From: a virus
Lineage: Duplodnaviria; Heunggongvirae; Uroviricota; Caudoviricetes
Reading direction: 5' to 3' (one strand)
DNA length: 62,572 nt
Virus record (IMG/VR): IMGVR_UViG_2671180890_000001
Both the position numbers and the translations under genes were made by a program. Below are positions 6,144 to 54,567 of this stretch, piece by piece (the stretch's first letter is position 1; every line of letters begins with the position of its first letter). The notes under the pieces are model-generated. The model was not told the origin of the DNA. It saw only the letters and a list, made by a program, of their open reading frames with translations, and made no database searches.

Positions 6144-6185
6144 ACATAATTCCCCATTATACGTGCGTATAATGGGGAATTATGT
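6144..6185. repeat. Left hairpin telomere (telL) read-through: 20 bp arms around a non-self-complementary TG centre at 6164-6165
   Basis: ACATAATTCCCCATTATACG-TG-CGTATAATGGGGAATTATGT; arms closely resemble the N15 telO palindrome. Confidence 0.85.
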
Positions 6186-7788: not shown

Positions 7789-8753
7789 TGAAACAGCGCT
7801 CTCTTCTAAAAAATGCTCCAGATATTAATCGCATTATGAGTAATAATCATCATGCCCCTGAACATCAGCCCGTATCACCTATGGTTGGTGATTTAAAACG
7901 TCAACTGAGTTCATTAACCGGTAACAGCATAACTTTGCCAGTATGCGGACGTAATGTTAACTTTAAGTTAGAGACAATTCCCGCAGATAAAGTTGAAATG
8001 GCAACAATGGTATGGCTAGGTAATGAACGCGATCAAGATTTATTAAATGAATCCTCTCTAGCCGATTTAATCCCATCTTTTCTAACGTCTGGACAACAAA
8101 ATCCAGCTTTCGCCAGAAAAGTGTCTGGAATCGTTGAAGTCGCTGACGGCTCACGTAGAAGAAAAGCAGCGATATTAACAGGATGTGACTATCGCGTCTT
8201 AATAGGTGATCTCGACGATGAACAGATGCATTGGTTATCCCAAATTGGTAACGATTATAGGCCTATTAGTGCATACGAAAGAGGAAAGAGATACTTACGC
8301 AAGCTAAATGACTTTGATGGTAACGTTAAAGCATTAGCCGAGGCTGAAAATATAGACAGAAATATTATCACTCGCTGTATTAATACAGCTGGTCTACCAA
8401 AAGATATATTAGCTATCTTCAATCATCCAGGAGAACTGTCAGCTCGTGCTGGAGATTCTTTGTTTAAGGTCTACAAAAAAAACATGGCTGCCATGAGCAA
8501 TGCTGCTCATCATCTTCTGGCAATTAAAAAAAACGGCGAGGATTTAGAAGCTTCACGGATTATACAAATATTATCTGACTCTGTTCTGGTTGGCGACGAG
8601 GAAAAAACAAAAGACGAGAAAAAATATGGGGAAGGGATCACGGCTAGATATAAAGGTAATTTTGTAACTATAAAAATTGATAGCCGAAAAATATCTAAAG
8701 AAATACTAAGCAGAATTGAGTTGTTACTAGAGGAACAATCTACTGATAATTAA
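7788..8753 (+). CDS. sopB: SopB/ParB centromere-binding protein
   Basis: 321 aa; ParB motif GSRRRKAA; start overlaps sopA stop (TAATGA). Confidence 0.9.
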   Translation: MKQRSLLKNAPDINRIMSNNHHAPEHQPVSPMVGDLKRQLSSLTGNSITLPVCGRNVNFKLETIPADKVEMATMVWLGNERDQDLLNESSLADLIPSFLTSGQQNPAFARKVSGIVEVADGSRRRKAAILTGCDYRVLIGDLDDEQMHWLSQIGNDYRPISAYERGKRYLRKLNDFDGNVKALAEAENIDRNIITRCINTAGLPKDILAIFNHPGELSARAGDSLFKVYKKNMAAMSNAAHHLLAIKKNGEDLEASRIIQILSDSVLVGDEEKTKDEKKYGEGITARYKGNFVTIKIDSRKISKEILSRIELLLEEQSTDN

Positions 8754-33393: not shown

Positions 33394-33517
33394 GTTTATA
33401 TCCTGTAAGTTGTAAGCCTGTTCGAAAAAAAATAAACAACTACGAGAGACAGAAAAAATATCTCAGGCTCTCTTTCTATAAGCTTTTAGTTGAGGATGTT
33501 CTGCAAAACAAAACTGG

Positions 33518-34378
33518 TTAGTTATGTAACTGCTTCCGGAATACAACAGCCGACGTGCTACAACGTAAAATTCGCTTGATTGTGGCAGTTGAGGAAACAG
33601 ACTTGCATTTCTCAACATCATCAATAATGACCACATCCGGTACAGGAATGACGCGGGTATGCAATGTTTTTGCACTAATAACATCACAGCCATTCAGTGG
33701 TCGAATATCTGCATCTTCAGGCACTACCAGAAGCACACGTTTTTCCGGTGCAGAAAAGCCAGCAGCAAGAGTGCGTGACAATAAAGTCATTCCGCTGCAT
33801 GGCTTCATACAAATTTCAGAAATATGATTCTTTTCGTCCAAATGATGCTGGACATCATTTTTATCATCACTCAACAACTCTGCTGTTAATACAATCCCTG
33901 CTGTCTCAGATTTCCAGGAAATGCTGATATCCTGATCATCTGCATCAACATCATATTCCATCGAGTAAGGACTAAAGCTACGTCCAACGAACGCATCATT
34001 TACCAGTACACGCCCACCCTGTCTGACCTGAAAGTCAACGCGCCCTGAAAGCTGATTTGCTGTTACAAGCAATGCCTTTTTTCTTTTTGTTTTATTGCTC
34101 ATTGCCACCAACTGTTCAGCCATCTCTCTTGTCACACTACCAGAAACTCTTTCTTGAATTTTCACAGAAAATTTTCTGGATGTAGTAGCATCGACATTAA
34201 AAAATCTGGATGTCATCAGGCAGTTATTAACAATTGGCATCAGCTCACTTACGATTGTAAAAAATTCCCGGTAAAGCTCATTTTGCTTTTCAACACACAG
34301 CTTTCCACAATCGTCCAGCTTACGCTCAAGAGCACTTAACCTTTCCATTATTGAATTAATTTTTTGCAACTCTTTCAT
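33518..34378 (-). CDS. Moron gene: 286 aa protein with N-terminal coiled-coil, function unknown
   Basis: ATG start at MKELQKIN; ORF-track N-terminal extension to 34639 is an artefact of reading through repeat copy 2 and a sopC-like palindrome. Confidence 0.5.
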   Translation of the reverse strand: MKELQKINSIMERLSALERKLDDCGKLCVEKQNELYREFFTIVSELMPIVNNCLMTSRFFNVDATTSRKFSVKIQERVSGSVTREMAEQLVAMSNKTKRKKALLVTANQLSGRVDFQVRQGGRVLVNDAFVGRSFSPYSMEYDVDADDQDISISWKSETAGIVLTAELLSDDKNDVQHHLDEKNHISEICMKPCSGMTLLSRTLAAGFSAPEKRVLLVVPEDADIRPLNGCDVISAKTLHTRVIPVPDVVIIDDVEKCKSVSSTATIKRILRCSTSAVVFRKQLHN

Positions 34379-34402: not shown

Positions 34403-34418
34403 TGCGACCACGGTCGCA
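34403..34418. promoter_or_regulatory. sopC-like centromere palindrome (TGCGACCACGGTCGCA), site 1
   Basis: 16 bp perfect palindrome; one G-to-C change per half-site from the F sopC core TGGGACCACGGTCCCA. Confidence 0.6.
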
Positions 34419-34471
34419 CGCTCCTGAATACATGCCCTGTTTCTTCCACCCTCGCACAGGACTGGCGAGCA

Positions 34472-34620
34472 TGAGGGACAAACCCGCGAATCATTAGCGC
34501 GGTAAAAACCCGGTGTGCATCGTTTTTGATTATTTCCGCACACTCGCGCAGAGGAGTTCCCCGTCGGGCTACGGTCATGGTTAATGCGGAAATACGGCGA
34601 CGATGCAGCGCGGTATTTAA
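34472..34620. repeat. Direct repeat copy 2 (pairs with 32686..32830)
   Basis: See copy 1. Confidence 0.7.
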
Positions 34621-34622
34621 TG

Positions 34623-34638
34623 TGCGACCACGGTCGCA
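34623..34638. promoter_or_regulatory. sopC-like centromere palindrome, site 2
   Basis: TGCGACCACGGTCGCA. Confidence 0.6.
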
Positions 34639-34658
34639 AACGAGAAACAAAGAGATTT

Positions 34659-34970
34659 TTATGCTACAGAGGAACAAGCTGGCGGGTAATTCAGCGTAGT
34701 GAATACCGGCATCTCCATCTTGTATGCGTAATGATACTCAGCAGTTGCTCCAGCAGACGCTTTCCAGCCAGGAAGCATCAAAATAGCATCAGCACAACGA
34801 AGCATTGCAAAGCAAATATCCATGTATTCACGTTGTGTCAGACCATTAGGCAAAGTGGCTGGATTCAAGACAGAGTGACCATGTCGTGACAAACGATCTG
34901 CCTCTTTATTAAAGGCGTCACGATTAAAGTTCTCATATCCCGTCATTGGCCCGGCAATATAAATTTTCAT
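34659..34970 (-). CDS. DUF4406-like protein (nucleoside 2-deoxyribosyltransferase-like fold)
   Basis: 103 aa; N-terminal MKIYIAGPMTG motif. Confidence 0.55.
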   Translation of the reverse strand: MKIYIAGPMTGYENFNRDAFNKEADRLSRHGHSVLNPATLPNGLTQREYMDICFAMLRCADAILMLPGWKASAGATAEYHYAYKMEMPVFTTLNYPPACSSVA

Positions 34971-35011
34971 TCACTATCCAACAAATTGAGCTCGTTTTTG
35001 ATACAGAGGGA

Positions 35012-35461
35012 TTAATTCAGGCATTGCGTCTTGATGTATTCCTGCAAGTAGTTAACCTGCGCAGTTATCCTGTCGATCCCACTTCGGAGACGGTAATAAT
35101 TGAGTTCAGCATCTGCTGTAAGTCTTGGGCTTTCTCCATTGCCCATGCCGCTGGCTCCGGTCGTTGACTTTGCACAGGTGGCGGCGACTTGCAGGCGCTT
35201 ACGCCCAGCAGAAACATCAGCACGGAGGCTTTCGATAGTCGCGTTAGCATCAGCAAGCTCCTTTGTATATCTGGCATCGAGTTCCGCTACGTCACGTTGA
35301 CGCTTCTGCATATCAGCGATTGTGGATGTGGCTTTATCGCGCTGCTCTTTGTAGGCGATGGCGTTATCACGGTAATGATTAACAGCCCACGACAGGCAGA
35401 CGATGATGCAAATAACCAGAGCGGAGATAATCGCGGTTACCCTGCTCATTGTTGACCCCAC
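35012..35461 (-). CDS. Rz: Spanin inner membrane subunit Rz
   Basis: Lambda Rz-like ([30 protein letters not shown]). Confidence 0.9.
35065..35277 (-). CDS. Rz1: Spanin outer membrane lipoprotein Rz1, embedded in Rz in the +1 frame
   Basis: Lipobox LGVSAC followed by a proline-rich segment; true start probably an internal Met. Confidence 0.75.
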
Positions 35462-35946
35462 AAACAGACTTCACGCTCAATCTCACGACGAGTCATCAGG
35501 CCTTTCCATTGCTTACCGCCAGCAGATATCCAGCGACGTAGCTGATCACATGCGCCTTTGATATCGCCCTGGTTTATTTTGCGAAGAAGCGTCGATGTTC
35601 TGAAATTACCAGCACCCACGTTGTAAACGAACGAGTAAAGAGCGCCGCGCGTTGTTTCCGGTATATCGACTTTGATGTACGGGTTAATTTGTCTGGCGAC
35701 AGTGGCAAGGTCTTTATTCAGGAGAGCTTTGCATTCTGCTTCGGTATACGTTTTACCTAGCATGATGTCTTTTCCAGTGTGTCCGTAACATACAGTCCAT
35801 ACGCCAACAATATCTTTGTATGGTATGTAACTGACACCTTCCAGACCATCGTTACCACTTGGGCCAGTGATGAGCATAGACGCTATGGCAATAGCCCCGC
35901 CACCAATAGCCGCTGTGACAGCTTTGCGTAATGATGACTGCATCAT
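35446..35946 (-). CDS. Endolysin, lysozyme-type with N-terminal signal-anchor-release segment
   Basis: 166 aa; hydrophobic Gly/Ala-rich N-terminus then lysozyme-like core. Confidence 0.8.
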
Positions 35947-36215
35947 ATTTCCTTCGGTGCTCTCTTCCCCAGCTCTCCAATAACCATCGCTGTAGCAGAA
36001 AGATTATTGGTATTAGTTTTATCCAATATGTCCTGCAATATCTTCGTGCGCTTCATCTGCTCGCGTTTATTGAGCCGGTATGTAAGCACACCGAGGATAA
36101 TGCTGAACGCGACACCGATAATGAAGCCCCAATCCTGCAATGACAGGCTGGCAAAGAACGCAGCAAGACCAGCGCTACCATAAGATGCACTGCTGTATCG
36201 TTCATCCATCTTCAT
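35943..36215 (-). CDS. Holin (pinholin-like)
   Basis: 90 aa, hydrophobic transmembrane segments and charged C-terminus, directly upstream of endolysin. Confidence 0.6.
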
Positions 36216-36310
36216 ATCTCTTACCTCGCAATAGTTGCTGAGGTTTCGGCTTGGAAACTATATGGCGAAAATAACCCCTACCAAAAACGGCAGGGGAATA
36301 TATTCTCCAG

Positions 36311-37432
36311 TTACTCAAATAACTTTTTCACTTCATCAACTGTCTGAAGATAACGTTCGCCCTCAATCTCAATACCTATTGCCTGACGTCCTAACTTCAG
36401 CGCAGCTTTAATAGTTGAGCCTGATCCCATAAAGAAATCGGCAACGATATCTCCGGGGCGTGAACTACTCTTTATAATATGTTCCATCATCGCTGCAGGT
36501 TTTTCACATGGGTGCTTGCCAGGATAATATTGCACAGGAGGAAACTCCCATACATCGGTATAAGGTACATCAGCAGTAACATGAAATGGACGGCGTAAAT
36601 TTTCATACTGAGCCTTCAAATCATCATACTGCTTCTTTACTTCCTCATAATGCAATTTCAGATCGCTATAACGCTTTTCATGTTCTGAATAATCAACATT
36701 AAAAGGATATGGACACGGGACACCGAGTGAATCTGCCTTCCTGCGAAATAATTCGCATAGTTTATTAAAATCAATTAATGATGGAAGCCGCCACTGCGAA
36801 TAAGAAAACCAGTGTGAACACATCTGCTTTCCTGTCGCTGAATTAATGTCTGCGGCTGATATATCTAACTGACGGCGAGCCAGCGAAAAAGCATCAATTA
36901 GTGGAGAAAAAATATTTTTTCTTAAATCTGCACATTTTGAAGCATAACCTGACTGACCTTTAGCATAACCTGACGCGCCGTAATGCTCTGCAAATAATAT
37001 TCTTTCAGTAGCAGGAAAATAAGCCCTTAAACTTTCTTTATGACAACCGCGCCACATACCACTGGGTTTAGCCCAAATGATATGGTTCAGAACATTGAAA
37101 CGGTCGCGAGTTAATAATTCAATTTTTGACGCAAGGCGAGAGCCGGTAAACATATACAGGCTGCCATTAGGGGCCAATATCCGCCAAAATTCTGCCAAAA
37201 ATTCGTCAATCCACCCCAAAAAGTCAGCATCGCTATCCCACTGGTTATCCCATGCGTTAGCCTTTACGCCGAAGTATGGTGGGTCTGTTGCAATCAAATT
37301 GACCGAGTTATCAGGGATGGTTTTGATAAATTGCAGAGAATCTGCGCAAACGAGTTGTGCGCCATGAATATTAGTGGTTTTGAACATAGCTATTATTTTT
37401 TTGCCTGGGTAAGCTAACCCGGCGATGCGCAT
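36311..37432 (-). CDS. Orphan DNA methyltransferase (N6-adenine or N4-cytosine, DPPY class)
   Basis: DPPY catalytic motif near the N-terminus and FxGSGST AdoMet motif near the C-terminus; no adjacent restriction enzyme gene. Confidence 0.85.
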   Translation of the reverse strand: MRIAGLAYPGKKIIAMFKTTNIHGAQLVCADSLQFIKTIPDNSVNLIATDPPYFGVKANAWDNQWDSDADFLGWIDEFLAEFWRILAPNGSLYMFTGSRLASKIELLTRDRFNVLNHIIWAKPSGMWRGCHKESLRAYFPATERILFAEHYGASGYAKGQSGYASKCADLRKNIFSPLIDAFSLARRQLDISAADINSATGKQMCSHWFSYSQWRLPSLIDFNKLCELFRRKADSLGVPCPYPFNVDYSEHEKRYSDLKLHYEEVKKQYDDLKAQYENLRRPFHVTADVPYTDVWEFPPVQYYPGKHPCEKPAAMMEHIIKSSSRPGDIVADFFMGSGSTIKAALKLGRQAIGIEIEGERYLQTVDEVKKLFE

Positions 37433-37517
37433 CGCGGGTGGGCTTTAGGTTCAGCCTATAGCTCTGGCATGGGTTGACCGCAGGACAAGCTGCAACTTGT
37501 CCTGCGCCCACTTTTCA

Positions 37518-37550
37518 GGCACAAAAAAACCGCCATAAAGGCGGCTTGTT
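37518..37550 (-). terminator. Strong Rho-independent terminator (candidate tR-prime-like late terminator) upstream of the methyltransferase
   Basis: GCCGCC-TTTAT-GGCGGC followed by T7 on the minus strand; additional hairpins nearby. Confidence 0.45.
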
Positions 37551-37632
37551 GGCTGTTGGGTACAAAAAACCCAACTTAACAAAACAATAACTAAAAACCG
37601 TCATTTTGCCAAGCTTTTTCGTTTTTGTGCTG

Positions 37633-37648
37633 TGCGACCGTGGTCGCA
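37633..37648. promoter_or_regulatory. sopC-like centromere palindrome, site 3
   Basis: TGCGACCGTGGTCGCA within the 20 bp palindrome TGTGCGACCGTGGTCGCACA. Confidence 0.6.
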
Positions 37649-37654
37649 CAGCTT

Positions 37655-37882
37655 TTAGAAAGTTGCCTGCTTATATTCATCGGTCAAAGAATATCGACCA
37701 GATCCGCTACGCTTTGCAACCCCAAAACAGATCATCTGTTCGATGATAAATTCAACGGCAGCTTGACTCAAAAAACAGGCTTCGCTTAACTCTTTCAGGG
37801 AAATGCGTGGGTATCCACGCATAACACATTCCACACTCAGGGCCGCTTCAGTCATATTTCCACGAATTTCATTAATATTCAT
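37655..37882 (-). CDS. Hypothetical small protein
   Basis: 75 aa ORF. Confidence 0.4.
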   Translation of the reverse strand: MNINEIRGNMTEAALSVECVMRGYPRISLKELSEACFLSQAAVEFIIEQMICFGVAKRSGSGRYSLTDEYKQATF

Positions 37883-37895
37883 AACGCCTCTCTAA

Positions 37896-38135
37896 TCAAT
37901 CTTGAAACTGGAAATCAACATCAGCCATAAAGCGGTTCAACTCAGCCAGTTTTGGCCCCATAGTCCCAACTAAGCGACCAGCCAGTCGGTCTGTTAGGTT
38001 GGTACTGTTGAAACCATATTCCTTTTCGAAACGTTCAATCTTCTGCCACAACTCATACAGTTCGTTAGCTATCTCCGCAACGTCGTCGCGCATTTTTTCG
38101 TTACCTTGATAATTCATAATATCCTCCAAATTCAT
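37896..38135 (-). CDS. Hypothetical small protein
   Basis: 79 aa ORF. Confidence 0.4.
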   Translation of the reverse strand: MNLEDIMNYQGNEKMRDDVAEIANELYELWQKIERFEKEYGFNSTNLTDRLAGRLVGTMGPKLAELNRFMADVDFQFQD

Positions 38136-38282
38136 ATAGTTAGTGGGTTATTACCCCTCAATGACACGAACTGTAACTCTGCCAAACGAACACATCCAGT
38201 GTTATTTTTCGCTTTTTAGTGAAATTTTTAATTTGCGTTGTTTTCTTGTTTTAGTGTATTTTATGGATATGGAGGCTATAAT

Positions 38283-38594
38283 ATGTTTAACGTGATAACC
38301 CACCCTGCAGCACTGGATGAACTGCTTGAACTACCAGATGATTTGCGAGGTCGCATGACCAGATTAATTGAGCGACTGGAGAAAGAAGGCAACAAACTGA
38401 AGATGCCCCATAGCCGTGTAATAGGTGGAGGGCTTTTTGAACTACGAGTAGGGGATAAAAACATCGCAAGAACGCTGTACGCCTACGCGACTGGTAACGA
38501 AATTTATCTATTGCATGCATTTGTAAAAAAGACACAGAAAACACCGGTGAAGGCTATCGAAATCGCCAGAACTCGCCTGAAGGAGATGAACTGA
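38283..38594 (+). CDS. Type II toxin, RelE/HigB superfamily (phage Gp49-like)
   Basis: About 103 aa from MFNVITHP; toxin precedes antitoxin as in hig modules. Confidence 0.7.
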   Translation: MFNVITHPAALDELLELPDDLRGRMTRLIERLEKEGNKLKMPHSRVIGGGLFELRVGDKNIARTLYAYATGNEIYLLHAFVKKTQKTPVKAIEIARTRLKEMN

Positions 38595-38881
38595 TGAAAG
38601 CGAAAGGCATCCCGTTTAACGAAGTAAAAGAAAAACTCCTCAACACTCCAGAAGCCGTCAAAGGATATGAAGAGGCCGACAAAGAGCTGGAGATGGTCGA
38701 AATGTTATACGAAATGAGGGAAAGAGCAGGTTTAACGAAATCAGCTCTGGCTGAACGAATGGGGTTGCGACCGTCAGCCATCAGCCGCCTGGAAAGCAAT
38801 CCTTTAGGGGCAAGTATGAAAACTTTGGCTAAATATGCTCATGCCTGCGGCGCAACCATCGATATTCGCGCTGTTTATTAA
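38594..38881 (+). CDS. HTH (XRE-type) antitoxin, HigA-like
   Basis: 95 aa; HTH segment LTKSALAERMGLRPSAISRLE; ATGA overlap with the toxin stop. Confidence 0.7.
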   Translation: MKAKGIPFNEVKEKLLNTPEAVKGYEEADKELEMVEMLYEMRERAGLTKSALAERMGLRPSAISRLESNPLGASMKTLAKYAHACGATIDIRAVY

Positions 38882-38923
38882 TTAGACTCTTTTACTACCC
38901 CGTCCAGAAGGGCGGGGTGTGCA

Positions 38924-39127
38924 TCAATGATGTGAACGCTCAACAGCGATAGTTTGCTGACAATGCTGGGCAATCTCTCGCGACATGTTGATGAGTCGTG
39001 AAACCTCACCAATATGTAGGCTGGCTTCTGGAGAAGCCAGGGTGACGCTAACCAGATCCAGAACGGCGTCAATATCTCTTAAATTTGAATCGAGTTGTTC
39101 AAGAGTTGATACGGCTGCTTCAGACAT
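38924..39127 (-). CDS. Hypothetical protein
   Basis: 67 aa ORF. Confidence 0.35.
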   Translation of the reverse strand: MSEAAVSTLEQLDSNLRDIDAVLDLVSVTLASPEASLHIGEVSRLINMSREIAQHCQQTIAVERSHH

Positions 39128-39209
39128 TAAATCTCATACCATTTAACTAAAAAAGGTTATTTATACTGTATAAAATTACAGGGTAAAACTCAAACTTTAC
39201 GGTCAATTT

Positions 39210-39452
39210 TCAATGAATTAACTGCGTAAACTGCTGTGTGACCCGATACTTATGCTCTCTCCCTATGCCACGATCAACTTTCTCAAGAAGTCCAGTACGG
39301 ACAGCAGAATCAAGCATCCTTTTAACAATTCTGCTATTTAACCCAACATCAAAAGAAAGCATCGAAGCGAAAACAAAACCATCACCACCATCAGAAAAGC
39401 TCTTTTCGCTCCGTTTTCGTATCATTTCAAAAAGCAATGCCTTTTTATCCAT
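39210..39452 (-). CDS. Hypothetical protein, possible winged-helix DNA-binding
   Basis: 80 aa ORF. Confidence 0.4.
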   Translation of the reverse strand: MDKKALLFEMIRKRSEKSFSDGGDGFVFASMLSFDVGLNSRIVKRMLDSAVRTGLLEKVDRGIGREHKYRVTQQFTQLIH

Positions 39453-39470
39453 TTATCCCTCCGTGACCAG

Positions 39471-39797
39471 TCACGCTTTGAGCGCAAGTTTCAGCCTCGT
39501 GGTTGTAAGGTGGCATGACCCTTCGCCATCAAAAATGCATTCTGAAACAGGCATTTTTTGACCACATCGCTGGCAAGTAGTAGATAGCTGCTTCTGCAGC
39601 TCCTTATAGTTTTTCCTGATCAGCAAACCAATGACTTCGTTCTCCGAATATGGAACTCGCCCTGGTCTACGCAATACACAAATTTCCCCCAACATACGTA
39701 ACTCGTCAGGTTCTAGAATCCAGTCCCGTCTTGATGTGCCTTCCTTCTTCAACCGTTCCCTGCGTCTCCTTTGCCGTTCTGCCGGTGTCAGCGCCAT
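39471..39797 (-). CDS. Hypothetical protein with basic N-terminus and Cys-rich C-terminus
   Basis: 108 aa ORF. Confidence 0.4.
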   Translation of the reverse strand: MALTPAERQRRRRERLKKEGTSRRDWILEPDELRMLGEICVLRRPGRVPYSENEVIGLLIRKNYKELQKQLSTTCQRCGQKMPVSECIFDGEGSCHLTTTRLKLALKA

Positions 39798-39812
39798 AAA
39801 TCCTCCTGAAAA

Positions 39813-40343
39813 TTACTTAACCCAATTAACTACACCGCCAGCGGCCACAACCGCCCTTTCACAGTCACGCTCATATCTCAAAGGTTGAAATACACCATCA
39901 ATAAAATATTTATCTCCACCAAACGCTGCAGGAAGTGAAACAGAAAACTGAATATGACCATCCAGAGTTACCGGAGAGTTGCCAGCCAGTCTACGCAACA
40001 CAGCCTTAACGGCCTCAATACGGTCATCATCAACTTTTTCTACAATATTGGAATTTAAATACTTCGAAGCCTTGCTATGCCAATCGCTGGTTTTAGGGTC
40101 TTGTCCATCCATCAAACGCCAAGCTTCAGCGATTAACTCATAGCCAGTGACAGTGGCTTCCTGCGCATCACCAATAAGTCGTGTAATCTCTCTTTCAAGC
40201 CGACCGCCTAGCTCTGTTTTAGTGCAATGTTCTGACCAATCGCCAGCCTCAAGCAGCGCGAGAATGCTTAAAATATCGTCCAATAGAACGGTAGTATTAT
40301 CGACTTCCTTCTGAAACTCACCGGCTACTGATTTATGCATCAT
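39813..40343 (-). CDS. Hypothetical protein
   Basis: 176 aa ORF. Confidence 0.45.
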   Translation of the reverse strand: MMHKSVAGEFQKEVDNTTVLLDDILSILALLEAGDWSEHCTKTELGGRLEREITRLIGDAQEATVTGYELIAEAWRLMDGQDPKTSDWHSKASKYLNSNIVEKVDDDRIEAVKAVLRRLAGNSPVTLDGHIQFSVSLPAAFGGDKYFIDGVFQPLRYERDCERAVVAAGGVVNWVK

Positions 40344-40642
40344 TCGTCATCCTCATCTGAGTCATCCTCATCACAGGATGAGAGTAGTGGGTTAGTCATT
40401 CGCCCTACTTGAGTGGCGTAGCCACGCCGACAGAGATTGCGCAGCACACTGTATATTTCGAACATCTCGGTTCGTTCATCACCAACATCAAGCTCAGATG
40501 CTATAGCGTGGCATTCAGTCGCGAGAGCCGATATTTTCTGAAATAACTCTGCTTTATTCACTCTTCGACTCCTGCGGCGGTTCTGGTAGTGGCATCCAGT
40601 GAGTTGCTTGCTCAATACCATTACCCGGCTTAATCGTTGCAT
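40340..40642 (-). CDS. Hypothetical protein with poly-acidic C-terminal tail
   Basis: 100 aa ORF ending CDEDDSDEDDE; start overlaps the upstream gene so one start is wrong. Confidence 0.4.
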   Translation of the reverse strand: MQRLSRVMVLSKQLTGCHYQNRRRSRRVNKAELFQKISALATECHAIASELDVGDERTEMFEIYSVLRNLCRRGYATQVGRMTNPLLSSCDEDDSDEDDE

Positions 40643-41303
40643 CTCCGCGCCGAAAGGTGCTTCCGGTATAGCGTGCGGAGCATATTAGCGGTTCAACCAG
40701 AGAGCTATCGAAATTCACCGAAATAAGCACGTTCTGGCCCTTTTCAGGCATTCGCTCACTACAGCTTATCCAACCATCCGGAGTTACCGGATAGTTGCCA
40801 GCCTCATACGCGACCCTTATCCAGTGCATAAGCATTTCAGTACTTACACATCCACAATCAACATCAATTTTGTCATGCTGCTGTTCCAGCCATTGCTCAA
40901 AAGTTAACTTGTAAGTTTGGCTTACAGGTTTGGCTTCCAGTTCTGCTATGTGATTTTTGGCTGATTCCAACTCAATCGACAATTTTTCCAACTGCTCTTT
41001 ATGATTTTTATATTCCTGATATGCGTGCCAGGACTGACCTTTGCGCACACTATCAGTGATATCAGTAATCTGTTCTGGTGTTAGCGTGGTCAGTGGCTGT
41101 GATGGGAAAATAAGCACTTTCCCGGAATCCCAATCAAAACCAGCGTGAATTGACTGAACCTCAACTGAAGGTGTTGAACCAATGCTGCCAGGCGAATGAA
41201 CAACGATTGTTACATCCATATCGCGACGATGGCTGTGGTTGTTGGACAAAATACGATTCAACAAAATACGATTCACCAACTCAGAAAATTTAGAAAATTT
41301 CAT
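40554..41303 (-). CDS. DUF551-type phage protein
   Basis: C-terminal PDGWISCSERMPE ... HWMPLPEPP pattern. Confidence 0.5.
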   Translation of the reverse strand: MKFSKFSELVNRILLNRILSNNHSHRRDMDVTIVVHSPGSIGSTPSVEVQSIHAGFDWDSGKVLIFPSQPLTTLTPEQITDITDSVRKGQSWHAYQEYKNHKEQLEKLSIELESAKNHIAELEAKPVSQTYKLTFEQWLEQQHDKIDVDCGCVSTEMLMHWIRVAYEAGNYPVTPDGWISCSERMPEKGQNVLISVNFDSSLVEPLICSARYTGSTFRRGDATIKPGNGIEQATHWMPLPEPPQESKSE

Positions 41304-41668
41304 GCTGATTCACCTTTCTCTGCTCTCTCCTGTCGGAACATCACTATCATCAGGTCGCCTTTTGTCGCTATCTTGGCTGTTGTGCCTGGCTCAATGCGGC
41401 TAAGTTCAAATGCGTCATAGAACGCCTCCAACGCTTTCTGGCGTTTTTCCTGTTTGCGGCGCTTTCCCCACTGCTTTAGAAAAACAGAGGCCGCCCACTT
41501 CCCCGCACTGAACATGATGTAAAACCAACCGAGAAGTGCCAGACCGGTATTTAGGGCCGTATCGATCGTTATCGTGGTGTCGATATTCACTACGCCACCT
41601 CCTGAAAATTTCCCTGATAAAACGCCAACACACGCTGCATAACTTCGCTCTTCCGACAATCGTGACAA
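41300..41668 (-). CDS. Hypothetical membrane-associated protein
   Basis: 122 aa ORF with one hydrophobic segment. Confidence 0.4.
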   Translation of the reverse strand: MSRLSEERSYAACVGVLSGKFSGGGVVNIDTTITIDTALNTGLALLGWFYIMFSAGKWAASVFLKQWGKRRKQEKRQKALEAFYDAFELSRIEPGTTAKIATKGDLMIVMFRQERAEKGESA

Positions 41669-42009
41669 ATCATGTTCAAGCGCCTGTCGTAACGACGTAT
41701 TTCTCCGTCAGGTAATGACCAGATAAGGTCTGGATCAACCACTACCGATTTCTTCGGCTTTACTCTTGATAGTTTTTTACGGGCGTTTTGCCAGTCCTTG
41801 CGTGCTTGTGCAGACAGAAATATCCCGGAGCCAGAGATATACAAATCACCACTGGCAGCAAGCTCTCTTGATAAACGACTAACAGCACACCGGCTAATAC
41901 CAGTTTCATCCGCAAGTTGCCTAACCGTTCCTCGTCCATTCAGGCGCACGAGTTCCACAATTTGTTTATTCAGTTCTTCCCTCTGTTCTGGTGTAAAAGC
42001 CTTTGCCAT
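41590..42009 (-). CDS. HTH DNA-binding protein
   Basis: 139 aa; HTH-like RQLADETGISRCAVSRL. Confidence 0.5.
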   Translation of the reverse strand: MAKAFTPEQREELNKQIVELVRLNGRGTVRQLADETGISRCAVSRLSRELAASGDLYISGSGIFLSAQARKDWQNARKKLSRVKPKKSVVVDPDLIWSLPDGEIRRYDRRLNMICHDCRKSEVMQRVLAFYQGNFQEVA

Positions 42010-42608
42010 TACGATTCTCCTTGCCCTTTTACAAGACGGGAGAAAATTGCGGATACATATTTAGCCTGATGAATAGCATCAGCCAGGGCATTGTGTCGTT
42101 CGCCATCAAATGGCATATCTTTTTTAGGATTAAAACCAATAAACTGACCAAGATTAACGATTGTTCGAACATCCTGATCATTAAAATATTCCCACGGACA
42201 GGCTAAGCCAACGCGCTCATAAGCACCGCGTAAAATTACATTATCGAACGTTGCTCCATTTCCCCATACTTTCAATTTTTTTAAATTACATGCATGGCAA
42301 GTAATAAAGTGTGATAATTCAAAAAGTGCATCCTTAATATCAAGGACATCATTAGTACAAATAGCGGCTCTGGCTTCCTTGCTCTGTTTCAACCACCATA
42401 AAATGGTATCACCATCGGCGATACCACCATTCAACATCGAGCTTCTGAGATTCACTGGCACATAAAAAGTAGGACCTAATTCCTCACTTTCTGGAGAAAA
42501 AAACACTGCCCCGATAGAAACAATTGGAGCACATGTGTTAGTACCCATTGTTTCAAGGTCAATCATTACATCAGACCGTTTCCTGTCGTAAATAATCTGA
42601 TTAGTCAC
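42009..42608 (-). CDS. 3'-5' exonuclease, DEDD family
   Basis: 199 aa; DLETMG exo I motif and C-terminal H...D motif. Confidence 0.7.
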   Translation of the reverse strand: MTNQIIYDRKRSDVMIDLETMGTNTCAPIVSIGAVFFSPESEELGPTFYVPVNLRSSMLNGGIADGDTILWWLKQSKEARAAICTNDVLDIKDALFELSHFITCHACNLKKLKVWGNGATFDNVILRGAYERVGLACPWEYFNDQDVRTIVNLGQFIGFNPKKDMPFDGERHNALADAIHQAKYVSAIFSRLVKGQGES

Positions 42609-42631
42609 GAATAATTCTCCTCAACGTTTAT

Positions 42632-42835
42632 CTATACCCAAATTTTCTGTTGATATGTTCTGGATGGTTTTGGCGTTCTTTCTGATTCAGGTAAATGAAC
42701 ATAAACGCAATATCCATCACCTAAAAAATCAGAACGAACAACCAGAACTTTCTTACCACGCCGCCGATAAGTATCTGAAAGACGCTCTGCTTCATCATGC
42801 GTCATCGGCCCCTGCTTAAATGGCGTTATTTTCAT
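42632..42835 (-). CDS. Hypothetical small protein
   Basis: Start taken at MKITPFKQ; the ORF-track extension reads through a sopC-like palindrome. Confidence 0.4.
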   Translation of the reverse strand: MKITPFKQGPMTHDEAERLSDTYRRRGKKVLVVRSDFLGDGYCVYVHLPESERTPKPSRTYQQKIWV

Positions 42836-43136
42836 TTTCTTGTGCGACCACGGTCGCACCCTCTCTGATTTCCAAGTAACGCTTAATCCAAAGATTTTCT
42901 ATATGCTTATTACCTGGCTGATTTGATAAATACCAATCGGCAATTACAGACTGCTTATTACTATCTGGTCGTGTCCTGTAACCACAAGTTGGACACCAGA
43001 TAACATATTCATTTCTTACCCCCGAATACCTTAATTCTGGCTTCGACGGTTTCCTGAACATAACTTGTTTACAAAGACAGAATGGCACTTCCTGCCCGAT
43101 GGCGTTTGATGATTTCACTGCGCTTCTCCGCCGCAT
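42816..43136 (-). CDS. Zinc-ribbon protein, possibly Lar-family restriction alleviation
   Basis: CxC ... CPTCG cysteine pairs; start uncertain. Confidence 0.35.
   Translation of the reverse strand: MRRRSAVKSSNAIGQEVPFCLCKQVMFRKPSKPELRYSGVRNEYVIWCPTCGYRTRPDSNKQSVIADWYLSNQPGNKHIENLWIKRYLEIREGATVVAQENENNAI
42843..42858. promoter_or_regulatory. sopC-like centromere palindrome, site 4
   Basis: TGCGACCACGGTCGCA. Confidence 0.6.
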
Positions 43137-43779
43137 TTAATAATGCAGTTCGATTTAAGCTCAGACATCGCGACTTAATTAAAAGCCAGCGTTCTTTATA
43201 ATCTTGTCTCCAGCTATCAATAGATATATTCAGTAGAAAACTCAGATGCCTGTCCTGTTCTCTCTCATCAACTGCCTCAGCACACGTAAGTTCTGATTTA
43301 ACCTGTTGTGCCGCGTAATAAATCAATTTCCGCATGGCTTTTTTCGTGGAGGCCTTCATTTTTTTAAAGCCGCCCCCCGAATGAGCAACCAGAAAATCAA
43401 GCCATAACCACTGACAAACAATCACATCATTGTTGTAATCAGGCTTGCATCCGTAGCAATAATAAAGCCAGGCTGATTCCTCGTTATTCAACTGACCAAT
43501 AGCCCTGCGCCAGCTGGCGCTCTGAAAATCAATATCAGTGAGCAACATTGATGATTGTTTAAATGTTTTCCCCTGGTGGAATCTAACCGGCTCAGCAGGA
43601 ACGGACACTTCGTATGAGTTATCATCCCCCACACTGATTGACCGGACTGGTTTATTGTTAAACCGTCCTGATCTACCGAGACGCATCTGCTCAAGCTGGA
43701 CCTCCAGAATGCCACGCTGGCGATAATGAACATCAGCCAATGCCGTAGAGACGCAGCTGCGTATATACTCAAGCTCCAC
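43069..43779 (-). CDS. Putative late antitermination protein Q-like
   Basis: 236 aa; position immediately downstream of cro on the same strand; family assignment not verified. Confidence 0.4.
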   Translation of the reverse strand: MELEYIRSCVSTALADVHYRQRGILEVQLEQMRLGRSGRFNNKPVRSISVGDDNSYEVSVPAEPVRFHQGKTFKQSSMLLTDIDFQSASWRRAIGQLNNEESAWLYYCYGCKPDYNNDVIVCQWLWLDFLVAHSGGGFKKMKASTKKAMRKLIYYAAQQVKSELTCAEAVDEREQDRHLSFLLNISIDSWRQDYKERWLLIKSRCLSLNRTALLNAAEKRSEIIKRHRAGSAILSL

Positions 43780-44017
43780 GCTTACGACTCTCCTTAATCG
43801 ACTGCTTTACCCGCCGAGTTGTAAAGTCACTCTTCAGCTTATAAGCAGTACGAACTTCAATATCGCTTTGCCGCAATGAAGGAATCTCTCCAGCGGTTAA
43901 CCATTGGTAAACAGCTCCGGGTGTTACACCTACCCCTGCCGCTGCTTTTTCTACACTGCCAAAATGGCGAATAAGTTCTTCTGGTTTCATGTTGTTATTA
44001 TAAACAATAAACAACAA
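43769..44017 (-). CDS. cro: Cro-like repressor
   Basis: 82 aa with HTH (VGVTPGAVYQWL), divergent from the CI-like repressor. Confidence 0.6.
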   Translation of the reverse strand: MLFIVYNNNMKPEELIRHFGSVEKAAAGVGVTPGAVYQWLTAGEIPSLRQSDIEVRTAYKLKSDFTTRRVKQSIKESRKRGA

Positions 44018-44081
44018 TTAAAGCCAGCTATAATAAATAAATTTTATAGCCAGCTATAAGAAGATCATTTATGATTACAGT
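44018..44081. promoter_or_regulatory. Divergent promoter/operator region between cro and cB
   Basis: Repeated AGCCAGCTATAA / TTATAGCCAGCTATAA motifs. Confidence 0.5.
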
Positions 44082-44678
44082 ATGAAAACACGAGGCGAAC
44101 GACTGAAAGCACGCCGTTTAGAGATGAAGCTGACGTTGCGAGAAGTTGCTGAGGCTGTCGATATCTCTATAGCAGGCGTCCAAAACTTAGAACGTGGCGA
44201 CGTAATGCCGTCACTGGAGATAGGTATTGCCCTGGCTAAGTGCTTACGCAAGCCAGTGCATTGGGTGCTATATGGGACAGAATATGACCCTGATCGCATT
44301 CCTGTTATTGGCACAACTGAAAGTGGGCCGGATGAAGAGTGGAAGCCGGGACAGGTTCCAAATACTGAGCGATTCCTGCCATTCATCAGCCAGCGCAATA
44401 CTGTGTATGCGTTAACTATCAGCAATCTTACGCAGGGAAACTATCAGCCAGGCGATTTTCTCCTGGTCGATTCTGCGCTGGAACTGGTCCCCGGCGAGGA
44501 TGTTCTGGTTCGTGATACTGCAGGAAATATCACTATCCAGCGCCTGGCCCGTTTTGATGATGAAAATTACTATCTGGATGGAACAAACTCACAACGCGCC
44601 ATCTTCAGGAAAAGCGATCTTGAATTTGTTCACCAAATAGTCGGAACGATCAAATCATTCATGGTTGAGGGTAGATGA
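44082..44678 (+). CDS. cB: Prophage repressor, CI/CB-like (HTH plus C-terminal S24-like domain)
   Basis: 198 aa; N-terminal HTH_XRE LTLREVAEAVDISIAGVQNLERG. Confidence 0.8.
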   Translation: MKTRGERLKARRLEMKLTLREVAEAVDISIAGVQNLERGDVMPSLEIGIALAKCLRKPVHWVLYGTEYDPDRIPVIGTTESGPDEEWKPGQVPNTERFLPFISQRNTVYALTISNLTQGNYQPGDFLLVDSALELVPGEDVLVRDTAGNITIQRLARFDDENYYLDGTNSQRAIFRKSDLEFVHQIVGTIKSFMVEGR

Positions 44679-44923
44679 CTTAATACGGGGTTTATTGTTT
44701 GCTGTAAATCTGGTTTAATGCAGGGCATATGTTCTGTGGGTTGACTCAGGTTACAGCAGCAGAAAAAAGACGAAAAAAAACCCGAGTCGGCAAACTCGGG
44801 TCCTTTTCAGGAAGCAGCCACAGTAACGCGACGGATTCCGTCAATTCAAGATGCGTTTATTGTGGCTGCTCCTGCGGATTTTTTCAACCCGAAAAAACAT
44901 AATTCGCATGGAATTGCTAAAAA

Positions 44924-47900
44924 ATGACATTAAACGATTTCTATGCGGATCGCTTTGGCAGCGATCCGTTCTCGCTAATTGAAGCAGCACGGGATGAACT
45001 AACCGAGCTGGCACAGATGGCTGGTATCAACTGGCCTGCCTGTTCCGACAACATCCAACTCAACCCTCGCGGGGGGGTTGAGCGTTACTCTTCATACAAT
45101 AAAACATCTCCAGAAGCTCTCGAAAAGAGCCTGAAAGGACGCGTAGAAATTTACTCCAGGCTGGAACACAGCAAAGGGATTGATTACCCGTTCATTAACT
45201 TCGTCCATAAAGGCAGCGATGCTGGCTCATGGAGCGGTTTCTCCTTCCTGTTTTCTGAATATCGCCGTGAGCAACAACGGAATAATGCGACCGTGGTCGC
45301 ACAACCGGAAGAAGAACGGGAAAGAATAGAACGTCAGGCCGAAGCACGTCGTCGCCGTGAAGAACAAAAACGAATTAATGACCTGAAAAACAACCAAATG
45401 GACCATGAACGTTTGCTGGGATGGCTGGCATTCCACAGCGCGTGGGAACATGCTCCGGCTGAAGACGGCTCATGGCCATATGCGATTAAAAAAGGTATTC
45501 GTGACGTTTTTAGTTCATGTGATGTGCGTCGCGTGACCAGTCACGACAGTGCGAAATGGAGCCGGGGGCCAACCACATATATGGCTATCCCTCTGGCTCA
45601 CCTGGACAGTCGTTATGATGGTCGTATTGTGGGTTGGCAGCGAATCGACAAACAAGGTGGGAAATACCAGACCAGCGCAGTAACCAGCGGCGATTTCGTC
45701 GGTGCCTGCTTTGTTATCGGTGAGCTGAAAGGGGCGCAAAACATCGCTGTTACAGAAGGTTTTGCTACTGGTGCATCCATCTGGCTTGCCACGAAAAAAG
45801 ATAAACGCTTTGACGCTGTGGTTGTCGCTGTATCCGCTAACAACATGGTTCATGTTGTGGAACAACTGGTAAACATGTACCCGGCGGCAAAAATCACCTG
45901 CGCACTGGATAATGACCGGAAATCTGCCACAGAAGGAAAAGGGAATACCGGCCTGCGGACTGGCTATGAAATCTTATCGAAATTCAACGATGTCCGCTGC
46001 GTCTATCCAACTTTTGAAGACGATCCGCAAATGGAGTGCAGTGACTTCAACGACCTGCACAAACTACGTGGACTTCGTGAAACAGCACGTCAACTGTTTG
46101 CAACAGCAAACCGCCTGAAAACCGGTACTGATTTGCTATCTCTGACGCTCAACCGCCTGAAGACAATTAAGCGGGATAACCGTCGTACTTTTGCCAAAGA
46201 GCTGCTGAGAGCGGTGGATATTGGCATGCTAACCTGTCCGGTTCCTAACAGTCCGTCAGATTTATTTAACATGTTCTGCATCGTTCTGCGTGAAATGGGA
46301 CTGGAAAATATCTATCGTGCTACGGTAAAAGACCACATTGCCCGTCGCCTGAATAAAAAGTGCCGTATTGCCCAGGCTCCGCGCTCTTTCAGCGAACGCA
46401 TAACTGATCCCAATAAACGACCTCAACATATCACCTATAAGCGTTTTGAAACTTCGGTAATGACCGATGATGTCCTGAAGTACGTGCAATCACTACAGGG
46501 GATAGTCATCGTCCGTGCTGGTATGGGTTCCGGCAAATCTACTGGATTGTTACGACCGTTAATGCATAGCTCAGAACGTGGTATCTCTGTTGCTCACCGT
46601 GTCTCCCTTATTGGTGGCCTGTGGGAAATGATGACAGAAGGAAAAGGTGTAAAAGCCGATATCCTGCACTATCAGGATCCTGGCTATCAGGAAATGGCTC
46701 CATACGCCAGTAAACTGACCATCTGCATAAACTCGATTGTTAAAAACTGCTGGCAACCGTTGATGCGCCAGCACGACTATTTTGGCTTTGACGAGGCCAC
46801 ACAAGGGCTACGTGCCGTTCTTTCCGGTCGGGCTATGGAAAACCCGGTGGCTGTATTCAATACGCTAATTGACGCGCTGGCCAGAACGGAACAACACCCA
46901 ATCATGGTGGATGCTGATGCGAACGATCTGCTGGTTGACCTGGCTGAACTGGCTATGAAACGCCGTGAAGAACTAGGTTTACCGGCATGGCTGCAGATCC
47001 ACGTAATTGAATTACCTGTTGATGTTCGCAACCGCGAAACAGGTGAGCCAATCCGGGTTTTTTATACAGAAAAAGATCGCATCATGACCGAGGTGGTGAA
47101 AGCTGTATCGGATGGCGAAAAAATCATGTTGGCCACCGACAGCTCCACCTTTGCAGAAGATGTGACAGCCACCCTGAGAATGCATTTTCCTGGTAAGAAA
47201 TTTCTGTGTGTAAACCAGAAAAACAAACCAGAGCCAGAAGTTGAAGCATTTACCAATCAACCGAAAAAGATGGTCAAAAAATACGACGGCCTGATTTATA
47301 GCCCGTCTATTTCATCCGGCGTGTCGATTGAGCAAAAACATTTTGACCGTCATTTCGGCATGTTCTGTGGTGAAGTTGTACCCAGCGACGCAGTGCAAAT
47401 GCTACGCCGCGACCGTACAGCAAAAGAATTTATTATCGGCTTTGATAAAGCTCGTGCAAAACGTGAAACTGACCCGCAAAAAATAGAACGAGCATTCGCC
47501 CAGGCATTGCTTGCTACTGCAGGTATGAACGGTGAACTGACGGATGTCGTTTTCGATGGCGACCGTATATCAATGGGGGTGGCCAATACCGACTTTACCA
47601 GGATGAAAATTAAAGCAGCCGCAATTGAAGCGTCTGCACGTAACGACTACGCCAGCAACATGATCTGCATCATGCACAGCGACGGTTATAAGATATCGCC
47701 GCTGGCCACCGATTATGCTGCAAATGATATCGGTAAAGATCTGCGTAAAGAAGCGCGGGATATTGTGTGGGAACAGACACTGGATCTGCATCTCAATACA
47801 GAAACTCCACAAGAATCAGAGCGTGAAGAACTGCTAAAAAAACGCGCGCTGACGCTTGAAGAACAGGCAAAACTTGTCCGCTGGGATATTGAGAACGAAC

Positions 47901-48919
47901 TGAAACTACCGGTTGAAGAAGGCACGCTGAAATTCTATTTCGATGGTGCTCGAGACAAAGTTCGCCGCTATGAAACAATGCTTTTAGATGAGGTAACAGC
48001 TCGTCGTTACGACCGGGAAGAAGCAGCCATCAATTTTACCTACGCATACCGTCAGGCGGGACAGTGGCAATATTTTGTAGTGACCGCAATGACTCGCGAG
48101 CAGGCTGATGATGTCTTTAAAACTAAATTCCCTGGAATAATCGACTACAAGGTAAAAGCTACTCCTACTGTTGAAGTCGGGGCGCGCGGTTTCTATGCGC
48201 TTAAATCAGCAACTCTCCGGCAGTACTTTATCGACTGCGGTATCAACCCTGAGACTATGACCGGCGAGGCGACTCAGGAGCGTCTCAAATTTGCTCGAGA
48301 TAACCTCATGACAGCCGAACGCCGTGACCTGTTGAATAACGTTCTGCACATTGGTGGTTTTATGACGCCAAAAGGGAAGCCTAAAGTGCCGGAAGCGTTG
48401 TTTAAAAACATTTGCGACTCTCTTGGCCTTAAAACAGGTAAACGTCGCGGCAGAGACGGCGATAAGCGTCCAACCTTGCGTTTTGTTGAGCCTGAATCAG
48501 CGGCATTTATGCTGGATATTCTTGCTCAGCGTCAGAAAGATGGCCTAACCCTGAAAACGCGTAAAGCCGAGAAGACTGCCATCGAAATGGATCGCGATTT
48601 GGATCTCAATATATATATGGATGATAAAACGCGATCCACAAACGAGCAGGTTCAAAACGCCCCTCATTCAGTAATTTCTGAGGCTTTGGCTGTGTTGCCA
48701 GTGGTTGTACCTGAGTCCTGGGCGATGAGTGCGCTTTCCGGTGAGGAGCTGGCCACTATGTCATCATGGTCATCAGCTAGCATAGCTATGACGTTTGCAT
48801 CTCTGTACCTCACAGAGTTCATGGATCACTTATCCAGCAATGAACTGCGGCGGTTACGTGAATACATTACCGGGAATAGCCCATGCAGCTACGAAGAGCA
48901 GGGCGCTTTCTATGGGTAA
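44924..48919 (+). CDS. repA: RepA multifunctional replication protein (primase plus helicase), N15 RepA-like
   Basis: 1331 aa; TOPRIM-like CALDNDRK region; Walker A GMGSGKST. Confidence 0.9.
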   Translation: MTLNDFYADRFGSDPFSLIEAARDELTELAQMAGINWPACSDNIQLNPRGGVERYSSYNKTSPEALEKSLKGRVEIYSRLEHSKGIDYPFINFVHKGSDAGSWSGFSFLFSEYRREQQRNNATVVAQPEEERERIERQAEARRRREEQKRINDLKNNQMDHERLLGWLAFHSAWEHAPAEDGSWPYAIKKGIRDVFSSCDVRRVTSHDSAKWSRGPTTYMAIPLAHLDSRYDGRIVGWQRIDKQGGKYQTSAVTSGDFVGACFVIGELKGAQNIAVTEGFATGASIWLATKKDKRFDAVVVAVSANNMVHVVEQLVNMYPAAKITCALDNDRKSATEGKGNTGLRTGYEILSKFNDVRCVYPTFEDDPQMECSDFNDLHKLRGLRETARQLFATANRLKTGTDLLSLTLNRLKTIKRDNRRTFAKELLRAVDIGMLTCPVPNSPSDLFNMFCIVLREMGLENIYRATVKDHIARRLNKKCRIAQAPRSFSERITDPNKRPQHITYKRFETSVMTDDVLKYVQSLQGIVIVRAGMGSGKSTGLLRPLMHSSERGISVAHRVSLIGGLWEMMTEGKGVKADILHYQDPGYQEMAPYASKLTICINSIVKNCWQPLMRQHDYFGFDEATQGLRAVLSGRAMENPVAVFNTLIDALARTEQHPIMVDADANDLLVDLAELAMKRREELGLPAWLQIHVIELPVDVRNRETGEPIRVFYTEKDRIMTEVVKAVSDGEKIMLATDSSTFAEDVTATLRMHFPGKKFLCVNQKNKPEPEVEAFTNQPKKMVKKYDGLIYSPSISSGVSIEQKHFDRHFGMFCGEVVPSDAVQMLRRDRTAKEFIIGFDKARAKRETDPQKIERAFAQALLATAGMNGELTDVVFDGDRISMGVANTDFTRMKIKAAAIEASARNDYASNMICIMHSDGYKISPLATDYAANDIGKDLRKEARDIVWEQTLDLHLNTETPQESEREELLKKRALTLEEQAKLVRWDIENELKLPVEEGTLKFYFDGARDKVRRYETMLLDEVTARRYDREEAAINFTYAYRQAGQWQYFVVTAMTREQADDVFKTKFPGIIDYKVKATPTVEVGARGFYALKSATLRQYFIDCGINPETMTGEATQERLKFARDNLMTAERRDLLNNVLHIGGFMTPKGKPKVPEALFKNICDSLGLKTGKRRGRDGDKRPTLRFVEPESAAFMLDILAQRQKDGLTLKTRKAEKTAIEMDRDLDLNIYMDDKTRSTNEQVQNAPHSVISEALAVLPVVVPESWAMSALSGEELATMSSWSSASIAMTFASLYLTEFMDHLSSNELRRLREYITGNSPCSYEEQGAFYG
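45286..45301. promoter_or_regulatory. sopC-like centromere palindrome, site 5, inside repA codons 121-127
   Basis: TGCGACCGTGGTCGCA encoding NATVVAQ. Confidence 0.6.
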
Positions 48920-54525: not shown

Positions 54526-54567
54526 ACATAATTCCCCATTATACGCACGTATAATGGGGAATTATGT
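54526..54567. repeat. Right hairpin telomere (telR) read-through: same 20 bp arms around a CA centre at 54546-54547
   Basis: ACATAATTCCCCATTATACG-CA-CGTATAATGGGGAATTATGT. Confidence 0.85.

Follow-up and report, generated by a model that had tools for sequence, protein, structure and literature searches.

Five dispersed palindromes as probable SopB centromere sites of an N15-like linear plasmid-prophage

The centromere sites of phage N15, which work with SopA/SopB, are said to have been described by Ravin and Lane in 1999 and by Grigoriev and Lobocka in 2001, and partitioning sites of phage phiKO2 were reportedly described by Casjens et al. in 2004. The centromere of the F plasmid, sopC, has the consensus TGGGACCACGGTCCCA, and centromeres of the IR type may occupy different locations in a replicon (PMC3177203). 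The natural sites of N15, IR1-IR4, are 16-mers of the form TGCGACCNNGGTCGCA (PMC7205306, Table 4). N15 SopB forms foci on an array of such sites (4xIR), and a hybrid SopB with the F DNA-binding domain does not; F SopB works with sopC only, and N15 SopB is relaxed in that it accepts sopC too (PMC7205306). Here we describe five copies of the same 16-mer in the viral DNA record IMGVR_UViG_2671180890_000001 (Caudoviricetes), analyzed over its whole length of 62,572 nt, which we call the window. Very probably, the palindromes serve as the centromere of an N15-type linear plasmid-prophage, in the form of parS-like "IR" sites for its SopAB partition system. Most of this is known already: it is a characterized N15-type dispersed centromere in an unstudied relative, plus one extra copy.

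An exact-match search for TGCGACCNNGGTCGCA over the whole window returned five matches, named A to E in coordinate order (Table 1). All have the form TGCGACC(AC/GT)GGTCGCA, with the central dinucleotides AC, AC, GT, AC, and GT from A to E. Chance or low complexity is ruled out as their source: there was no match in 100 dinucleotide-preserving shuffles, and a relaxed search added nothing, since no degenerate site with up to three mismatches exists in the window, the surroundings of sopAB and of the telomeres included. Each site departs from the F sopC core at two bases, one G-to-C change per arm. A preliminary description of this DNA, made from the sequence before this analysis, had placed five palindromes at these same coordinates, argued that they could not be due to chance, noted their AC or GT centers and the one G-to-C change per half-site, and called for a genome-wide count; all of this has held up, the count being exactly five with no degenerate extras. 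The sites are single copies spread across 10.9 kb of the arm that holds the genes for replication, immunity, and late regulation, with spacings from 220 bp to 5.2 kb. The repeat analysis of the window found no tandem family at the palindromes. Rfam gave no match at or near the five sites, its only matches being C4 and isrK, near 50.9 kb.

The first line of evidence for the centromere assignment is identity with N15, in which the 16-bp palindrome is the same, the copies are likewise single and dispersed, and SopB bears the same D-R-N signature. The second is position. Four of the window sites have a counterpart in N15, at about codons 121-126 of repA, about 200 bp after Q, just before the -35 of the late promoter, and at the end of the late accessory genes that is nearest cos. 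The record of phiKO2 (NC_005857) has four features annotated as "putative plasmid partitioning site", all of them TGCGACCACGGTCGCA and all at the same relative positions; they include one in repA and one directly after a DUF4406/nucleoside deoxyribosyltransferase-like gene. From these comparisons, the four sites have in all likelihood been inherited at fixed positions from a common ancestor with N15 and phiKO2. The closest relatives of the window, YDC107_1 and PhiR46_1, carry all five sites with conserved flanks.

Table 1. Coordinates of the five palindromes, of associated features in the window, and of the four sites of N15
Feature	Coordinates	Strand	Orthologues	Remarks
Site A, extra palindrome TGCGACCACGGTCGCA	34403..34418			Widens to a 20-bp palindrome, CGTGCGACCACGGTCGCACG
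Site B	34623..34638		N15 45562; phiKO2 48618; PY54 44409	Follows the DUF4406 gene (34659-34970, minus strand), 20 bp past its stop
Site C	37633..37648		N15 41125; phiKO2 45385	Lies after the gp51 homologue (stop at 37655) and before the late promoter; center of a 24-bp palindrome
Site D	42843..42858		N15 35931; phiKO2 40346	211 bp downstream of the Q stop codon
Site E	45286..45301		N15 33480; phiKO2 37906	In repA, third base of codon 121 to end of codon 126, N-A-T-V-V-A
sopA, partition ATPase	6622..7788	+		NF010259 SopA equivalog, 734.3 bits (cutoff 725)
sopB, presumed ligand of the five sites	7788..8753	+		NCBIfam NF010252, 407.6 bits (cutoff 274)
repA, N15 gene 37-type replication protein	44924..48919	+		NCBIfam NF042913 CyRepA1
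Q-like antiterminator gene	43069..43779	-		Pfam PF06323, E = 4e-84
Late promoter and terminator	37527..37612	-		-35 TTGGCA 37612-37607; -10 TATTGT 37589-37584; intrinsic terminator 37547-37527
Lambdoid non-coding segment, 187 bp	34425..34611			Exactly between sites A and B; from the repeat analysis
Left hairpin telomere	6144..6185			Palindrome center 6164/6165; assembly reads through
Right hairpin telomere, adjoining telN	54526..54567			Palindrome center 54546/54547; mirrored telN ORFs
N15 site	33480 (N15)			Inside repA (gene 37)
N15 site	35931 (N15)			184 bp after Q (gene 40)
N15 site	41125 (N15)			Between gene 51 and the annotated late promoter -35 at 41162
N15 site	45562 (N15)			After gene 58

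The placements given in the preliminary description fare well on this comparison. Sites A and B do bracket the moron repeat that it had noted, flanking a 187-bp copy whose partner is at 32640-32827; site C lies close to the late promoter, ending 20 nt upstream of the -35; and site D adjoins the Q-like gene. Site E is inside repA, but the description had assigned it to codons 121-127 (NATVVAQ), one codon too many. The likeness to the dispersed centromeres of N15, and the proposed comparison of positions with that phage, are borne out by the sequence identity and by the four positional orthologues. The term "sopC-like variant" stands only in part: the sites are of the SopB centromere type, but they are identical to IR1-IR4 of N15 and to the phiKO2 sites and so do not constitute a new variant. 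A phage-specific novelty is ruled out by the occurrence of the identical motif in N15, phiKO2, and many IMG/VR contigs, and the G-to-C change in the arms, being shared with N15 and phiKO2, is a hallmark of the N15 class.

The third line of evidence is the presumed ligand. Both sopA and sopB are intact and score above their equivalog cutoffs, the NF010252 score confirming the SopB homologue that had been proposed at 7788..8753, and the left telomere palindrome lies 437 bp upstream of sopA. The SopB of the window aligns to the crystallized DNA-binding domain of F SopB (3MKY), whose residues S189, R190, K191, R195, and R219 have been reported to contact sopC. Its recognition helix reads ENIDRNIITRC: R190, R195, and R219 are conserved, and D stands at position 189 and N at 191, which is also the case in N15 and phiKO2. 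The helix goes with the arm of the palindrome. A D-R-N helix occurs with the arm GCGACC only (16 contigs plus the window, phiKO2, and PhiR46_1), and an S-R-K or D-R-K helix with an arm of the GGGACC type (five contigs, PY54 among them). There are no exceptions where both the helix and the sites can be read.

The fourth line of evidence comes from site E, where a centromere site has to share its bases with codons. The N-terminal 300 aa of RepA are 83-85% identical to those of N15 and phiKO2, and RepA N-terminal homologues were gathered from IMG/VR by peptide patterns lying outside the site. In about 45 repA loci of the N15 clade, the site is always at +362/365 in repA. In the loci of this clade that were examined, a second site is always 2075-2091 bp upstream of the repA start, and in the ~45 loci a third is always 5.6-8.6 kb upstream, which is how far away the late promoter stands in the window and in N15. 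Codons 121-125 show no third-position variation across 33 distinct repA sequences of the N15 clade. Residue 121 itself varies (C, G, H, N, or R), yet its codon is always NNT. Neighboring codons for invariant amino acids have a mean third-position heterozygosity of 0.37, and just 12% of them are invariant. The sole polymorphic position of the site is position 16 on the repA strand, with T in 14 of the 33 sequences; this T is the variant of the N15 genome record, where it falls at position 1 of the plus-strand site.

More distant RepA clades (41-64% identity, PY54 included) have an F-type palindrome, TGGGACCNNGGTCCCA, at the same codons, where the peptide ATVVA becomes GT(T/V)VP; both arms are altered together, even though this entails replacing amino acids. 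A third palindrome class, TGTGACCNNGGTCACA or TGCGACCGTGGTCACA, is found at these repA codons in five loci, where it codes for ATVVT; in this class the repA site is TGCGACC..GGTCACA and the sites elsewhere are TGTGACC..GGTCACA. One locus with 63% RepA identity has no site in 18.7 kb. Such a pattern, with silent positions frozen and replacements that keep the symmetry, points to selection at the level of DNA, which probably maintains the site embedded in repA. A profile search of genome contigs with the RepA alignment gave a single locus, in Pseudocitrobacter.

Two side observations on site arrangement may be recorded. In 15 loci of the distant telomere-phage clades, PY54 among them, there is a second palindrome in repA, at +618 to +630, besides the one at +362 to +371; this second site is absent from the window and from the N15 clade. 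In six Klebsiella-type loci, the sites 5.8-6.0 kb upstream of repA, the distance of the late-promoter site in these loci, come as pairs 47 bp apart, a spacing reminiscent of the 43-bp sopC repeat, and some of these loci have further upstream pairs 155 bp apart.

The mechanism can be sketched from the systems already described. A SopB dimer would recognize each 16-bp palindrome through its helix-turn-helix and through the conserved arginine equivalent to R219 of F SopB. Bound SopB would then nucleate a larger SopB assembly on the adjacent DNA, by analogy with ParB/SopB of F, and the SopA ATPase would position the SopB complexes, so that each daughter cell could inherit the low-copy linear plasmid. 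We infer by this analogy that the SopB of this phage binds and stabilizes through the five sites, and that there is a spreading or condensate step.

Several points weigh against the centromere assignment or temper it. The SopB of the window is 73%, not 100%, identical to that of N15. In vitro, F SopB depends less on position 3 of the arm, where G or C is found, than on any other arm position; with N15 SopB being relaxed as well, the difference in the arm is no strict discriminator. The covariation of helix and arm is supportive but is not statistically independent, as it involves essentially two clades and may reflect a single evolutionary event. That sites are kept at the late promoter, downstream of Q, and within repA hints that they may do more than serve partition, and site A could be a weak terminator hairpin. 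We nevertheless regard the centromere assignment as very probable, because it rests jointly on the identity with the N15 sites, the positional orthology, the selection on DNA at the repA site, and the matching recognition helix of SopB.

Of the other explanations, the one that survives best extends the centromere assignment rather than replacing it. SopB-IR complexes might also modulate late transcription, repA expression or replication, or both, and this would fix the positions of the sites. The preliminary description had offered a version of this, in which SopB spreading silences late genes and repA. We consider such a dual role a serious possibility, but on balance do not favor it. The positions are conserved across N15, phiKO2, and the ~45 IMG/VR loci. 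They also outlast a change of site type: in PY54-like phages, F-type sites are found within repA, about 2.1-2.8 kb upstream of that gene, and behind the DUF4406 gene, and this retention of placement across a switch of specificity makes a second role plausible. Site C stands next to the -35 of a late promoter that is itself conserved: the block aligns with the annotated -35, -10, and terminator of N15 and phiKO2, with 83% mean column identity.

On the other side, there is no sign of regulation in the sequence, and several positions and the number of sites vary: four in N15 and phiKO2, five in the window, at least six in Klebsiella-type loci, and about 11 in PY54. Variation in number argues against each site being a precise regulatory element. 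Silencing by F SopB is mainly seen upon its overproduction. In N15, sites near Q and the late promoter are said to have been implicated by Ravin, Rech and Lane in 2008. According to the title of that paper, late gene expression is facilitated by the Sop system of N15 (Ravin, Rech and Lane, 2008), which speaks for some dual role. As far as that title goes, the coupling idea is not new, and the published effect is opposite in sign to silencing. Our literature search found no open-access description of this effect.

A stronger proposal would be that the positions of the dispersed sites, and not only their presence, are under selection, reflecting a conserved second function of SopB in the control of repA or replication and of late transcription. 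We put this forward as a speculation, and think it rather unlikely. Telomere phages with no more than 41-64% identity between their RepA N-termini retain the sites in repA, after Q, and after the DUF4406 gene. The same sites recur in at least two specificity classes, and possibly in a third (arm position 3 being C, G, or T), with a matched helix wherever it can be read. The specificity switch changed both arms at every site, with Ala-to-Gly and Ala-to-Pro replacements in RepA. If the proposal is true, a multi-site centromere can switch its specificity in concert, perhaps by way of a SopB intermediate of relaxed specificity like that of N15.

The remaining explanations would replace the centromere. 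In one, the palindrome is the operator of some other DNA-binding protein, such as the CB repressor, Cro, or a small HTH protein like gp51. Site C does come directly after a small gene with a weak winged-HTH match, below the Pfam cutoff. The same sequences, however, are the SopB sites used experimentally in N15 (PMC7205306); the cB-cro and cB-repA intergenic regions, to which the N15 record assigns the CB operators, contain no site; and the arm covaries with the recognition helix of SopB. We find a different ligand very improbable.

In another, the palindromes would be RNA or DNA hairpins, intrinsic terminators, or structural elements apart from partition. Site A, alone among the five, is flagged as terminator-like, weakly and on the minus strand, and the N15 record has a stem-loop, labeled "putative rho-independent terminator", over its site at 45562. 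But a T tail is found at only one of the five sites, and one site lies within an essential gene in the sense orientation. Moreover, the two central bases, too few by themselves for a loop, vary freely while the arms do not, as is typical of a site for a dimeric protein. The chance that hairpin formation is what the five palindromes are about appears very slight.

Recombination is brought to mind by the surroundings of sites A and B, which form a 17-bp direct repeat 220 bp apart. Site B follows its DUF4406 gene as its counterparts do (17 bp after the gene stop in phiKO2, 54 bp in PY54). A 286-aa gene of no known function starts on the minus strand (ATG at 34378), and site A lies 24 nt upstream of this start. 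The segment between A and B, 34425-34611, is a direct repeat of 32640-32827 (86-95% identical), which adjoins cos, and has a non-coding homologue close to the right end of lambda and of many lambdoid/Stx phages. The two copies flank two genes, 33518-34378 (phrog_2571) and 32944-33393 (phrog_3054); these "moron" genes by site A, of 286 and 149 aa, have no Pfam match and match only PHROGs of unknown function. Site A is a lineage-specific duplicate of the post-DUF4406 site. The 220-bp A/B pair is common to YDC107_1, PhiR46_1, and several IMG/VR contigs, and hence is a lineage trait and not an error. The arrangement looks as if the site was duplicated when the 187-bp module was acquired. That the repeats are only recombination junctions or module boundaries of mosaic phages, with no binding function, would fit the exact bracketing of the 187-bp insert and the differing gene content between sites (repA to the late-promoter site being 5.6 to 8.6 kb among relatives), but is scarcely credible, as it leaves the frozen synonymous positions of repA, the compensatory palindrome change between clades, and the N15 experiments unexplained.

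The window itself comes from an E. coli plasmid-prophage that is linear and N15-like (Ravinvirus). Its best database matches are Ravinvirus records. Escherichia phage YDC107_1 (genus Ravinvirus) and PhiR46_1 match the region with 98% identity, and its DNA is about 75% identical to N15 and phiKO2 in the immunity and replication genes. The virion genes are lambdoid, RepA is of the N15 gene 37 type, and a protelomerase gene adjoins a telomere palindrome. The protelomerase corresponds to a 631-aa open reading frame (ORF; 52460-54355) beside the right telomere palindrome, and the corresponding region of YDC107_1 is annotated as protelomerase. The real linear genome extends from about 6165 to 54546 (48,382 bp, 48.4 kb); the window is 62.6 kb because the assembly runs through both hairpin telomeres. 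All five sites fall in the unique part of the genome. Of 5426 complete E. coli genomes, 17 have the repA region, in every case on a plasmid; so do 213 PLSDB plasmids, mostly of Klebsiella.

The read-through has left its own marks. Positions 1-6164 mirror 6165-12331, and 54547-62151 mirror 46940-54546, with 100% complementarity save single-base indels. The last stretch, 62167-62572, mirrors about 12333-12738, being a mirror image of the left arm, so that the two ends of the record join. The record is thus a circularized assembly artefact of a hairpin-ended linear plasmid, with a chimeric junction at 62151/62152. Several relatives in PLSDB and RefSeq have an inflated size and two matches per record, which suggests the same artefact.

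Two other features of the genome were noted. Rfam identified a C4 antisense RNA (82 bits) and an isrK-like RNA (53 bits) at 50872-51061 (mirrored at 58032-58119). They lie upstream of antirepressor-like genes between repA and telN, consistent with a small-RNA-controlled anti-immunity locus of the N15/P1 type. Degenerate tandem repeats with periods of 42 bp and 189 bp, 66-80% identical, occur at 11988-12466, inside a large tail-fibre ORF (10583-12964, minus strand).

The chief value of the finding for this DNA is in annotation: the five palindromes can be labeled as SopB centromere sites of an N15-like plasmid-prophage, and the records of YDC107_1 and PhiR46_1 do not annotate them. The framework is largely published, in the form of N15 IR1-4, the specificity mapping with F/N15 hybrid SopB, and the effect of Sop on late genes. 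Of modest wider interest are a centromere site kept within an essential replication gene by selection on DNA, and a G/C(/T) switch at arm position 3 that goes in concert with changes at SopB residues 189 and 191. The telomere phages thereby provide a natural data set on the evolution of ParB-centromere specificity, and hence of plasmid incompatibility, in a setting where the centromere is scattered over many loci.

How the window stands among known systems can be told from the most distant inward. Chromosomal parS sites are several dispersed 16-bp palindromes bound by ParB/Spo0J, and follow the same logic in having no tandem array. They differ in sequence, in the ParB subfamily, and in their origin-proximal chromosomal context. 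F sopC is closer: it too is a 16-bp palindrome with a purine-pyrimidine center, 14 of its 16 bases are identical, and its ligand is a homologous SopB. But it consists of tandem 43-bp repeats at one locus, its arm is TGGGACC, and F SopB has an S-R-K helix and is non-functional with the N15 sites. A centromere of the F type is ruled out in the window, which has neither a TGGGACC site nor a tandem arrangement.

PY54, a Yersinia phage with SpyA/SpyB, is a telomere phage whose palindromes are likewise dispersed; one occupies the same repA codons and another follows the DUF4406 gene. It differs in its F-type arm, TGGGACC, its total of about 11 sites, its second repA site at about +624, and the S-R-K helix of SpyB. 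Some PY54 sites are hybrids, with one GGG arm and one GCG or GTG arm, and one site is inside spyB (22251).

phiKO2 and N15 are the nearest of the described systems. phiKO2 differs from the window in having four sites and in its DNA identity of ~75%. N15 also has four sites to the five of the window. Its centers include TC and AT, whereas those of the window are all AC or GT. In the N15 genome record, the repA site is imperfect, AGCGACC...GGTCGCA, and the window repA site is a perfect palindrome. The record reads AGCGACCACGGTCGCA at 33480-33495, giving a GCT Ala codon on the repA strand; the IR1 oligonucleotide (PMC7205306, Table 4) has TGCGACC, unlike the genome record. Set against N15, the one additional palindrome of the window is site A.

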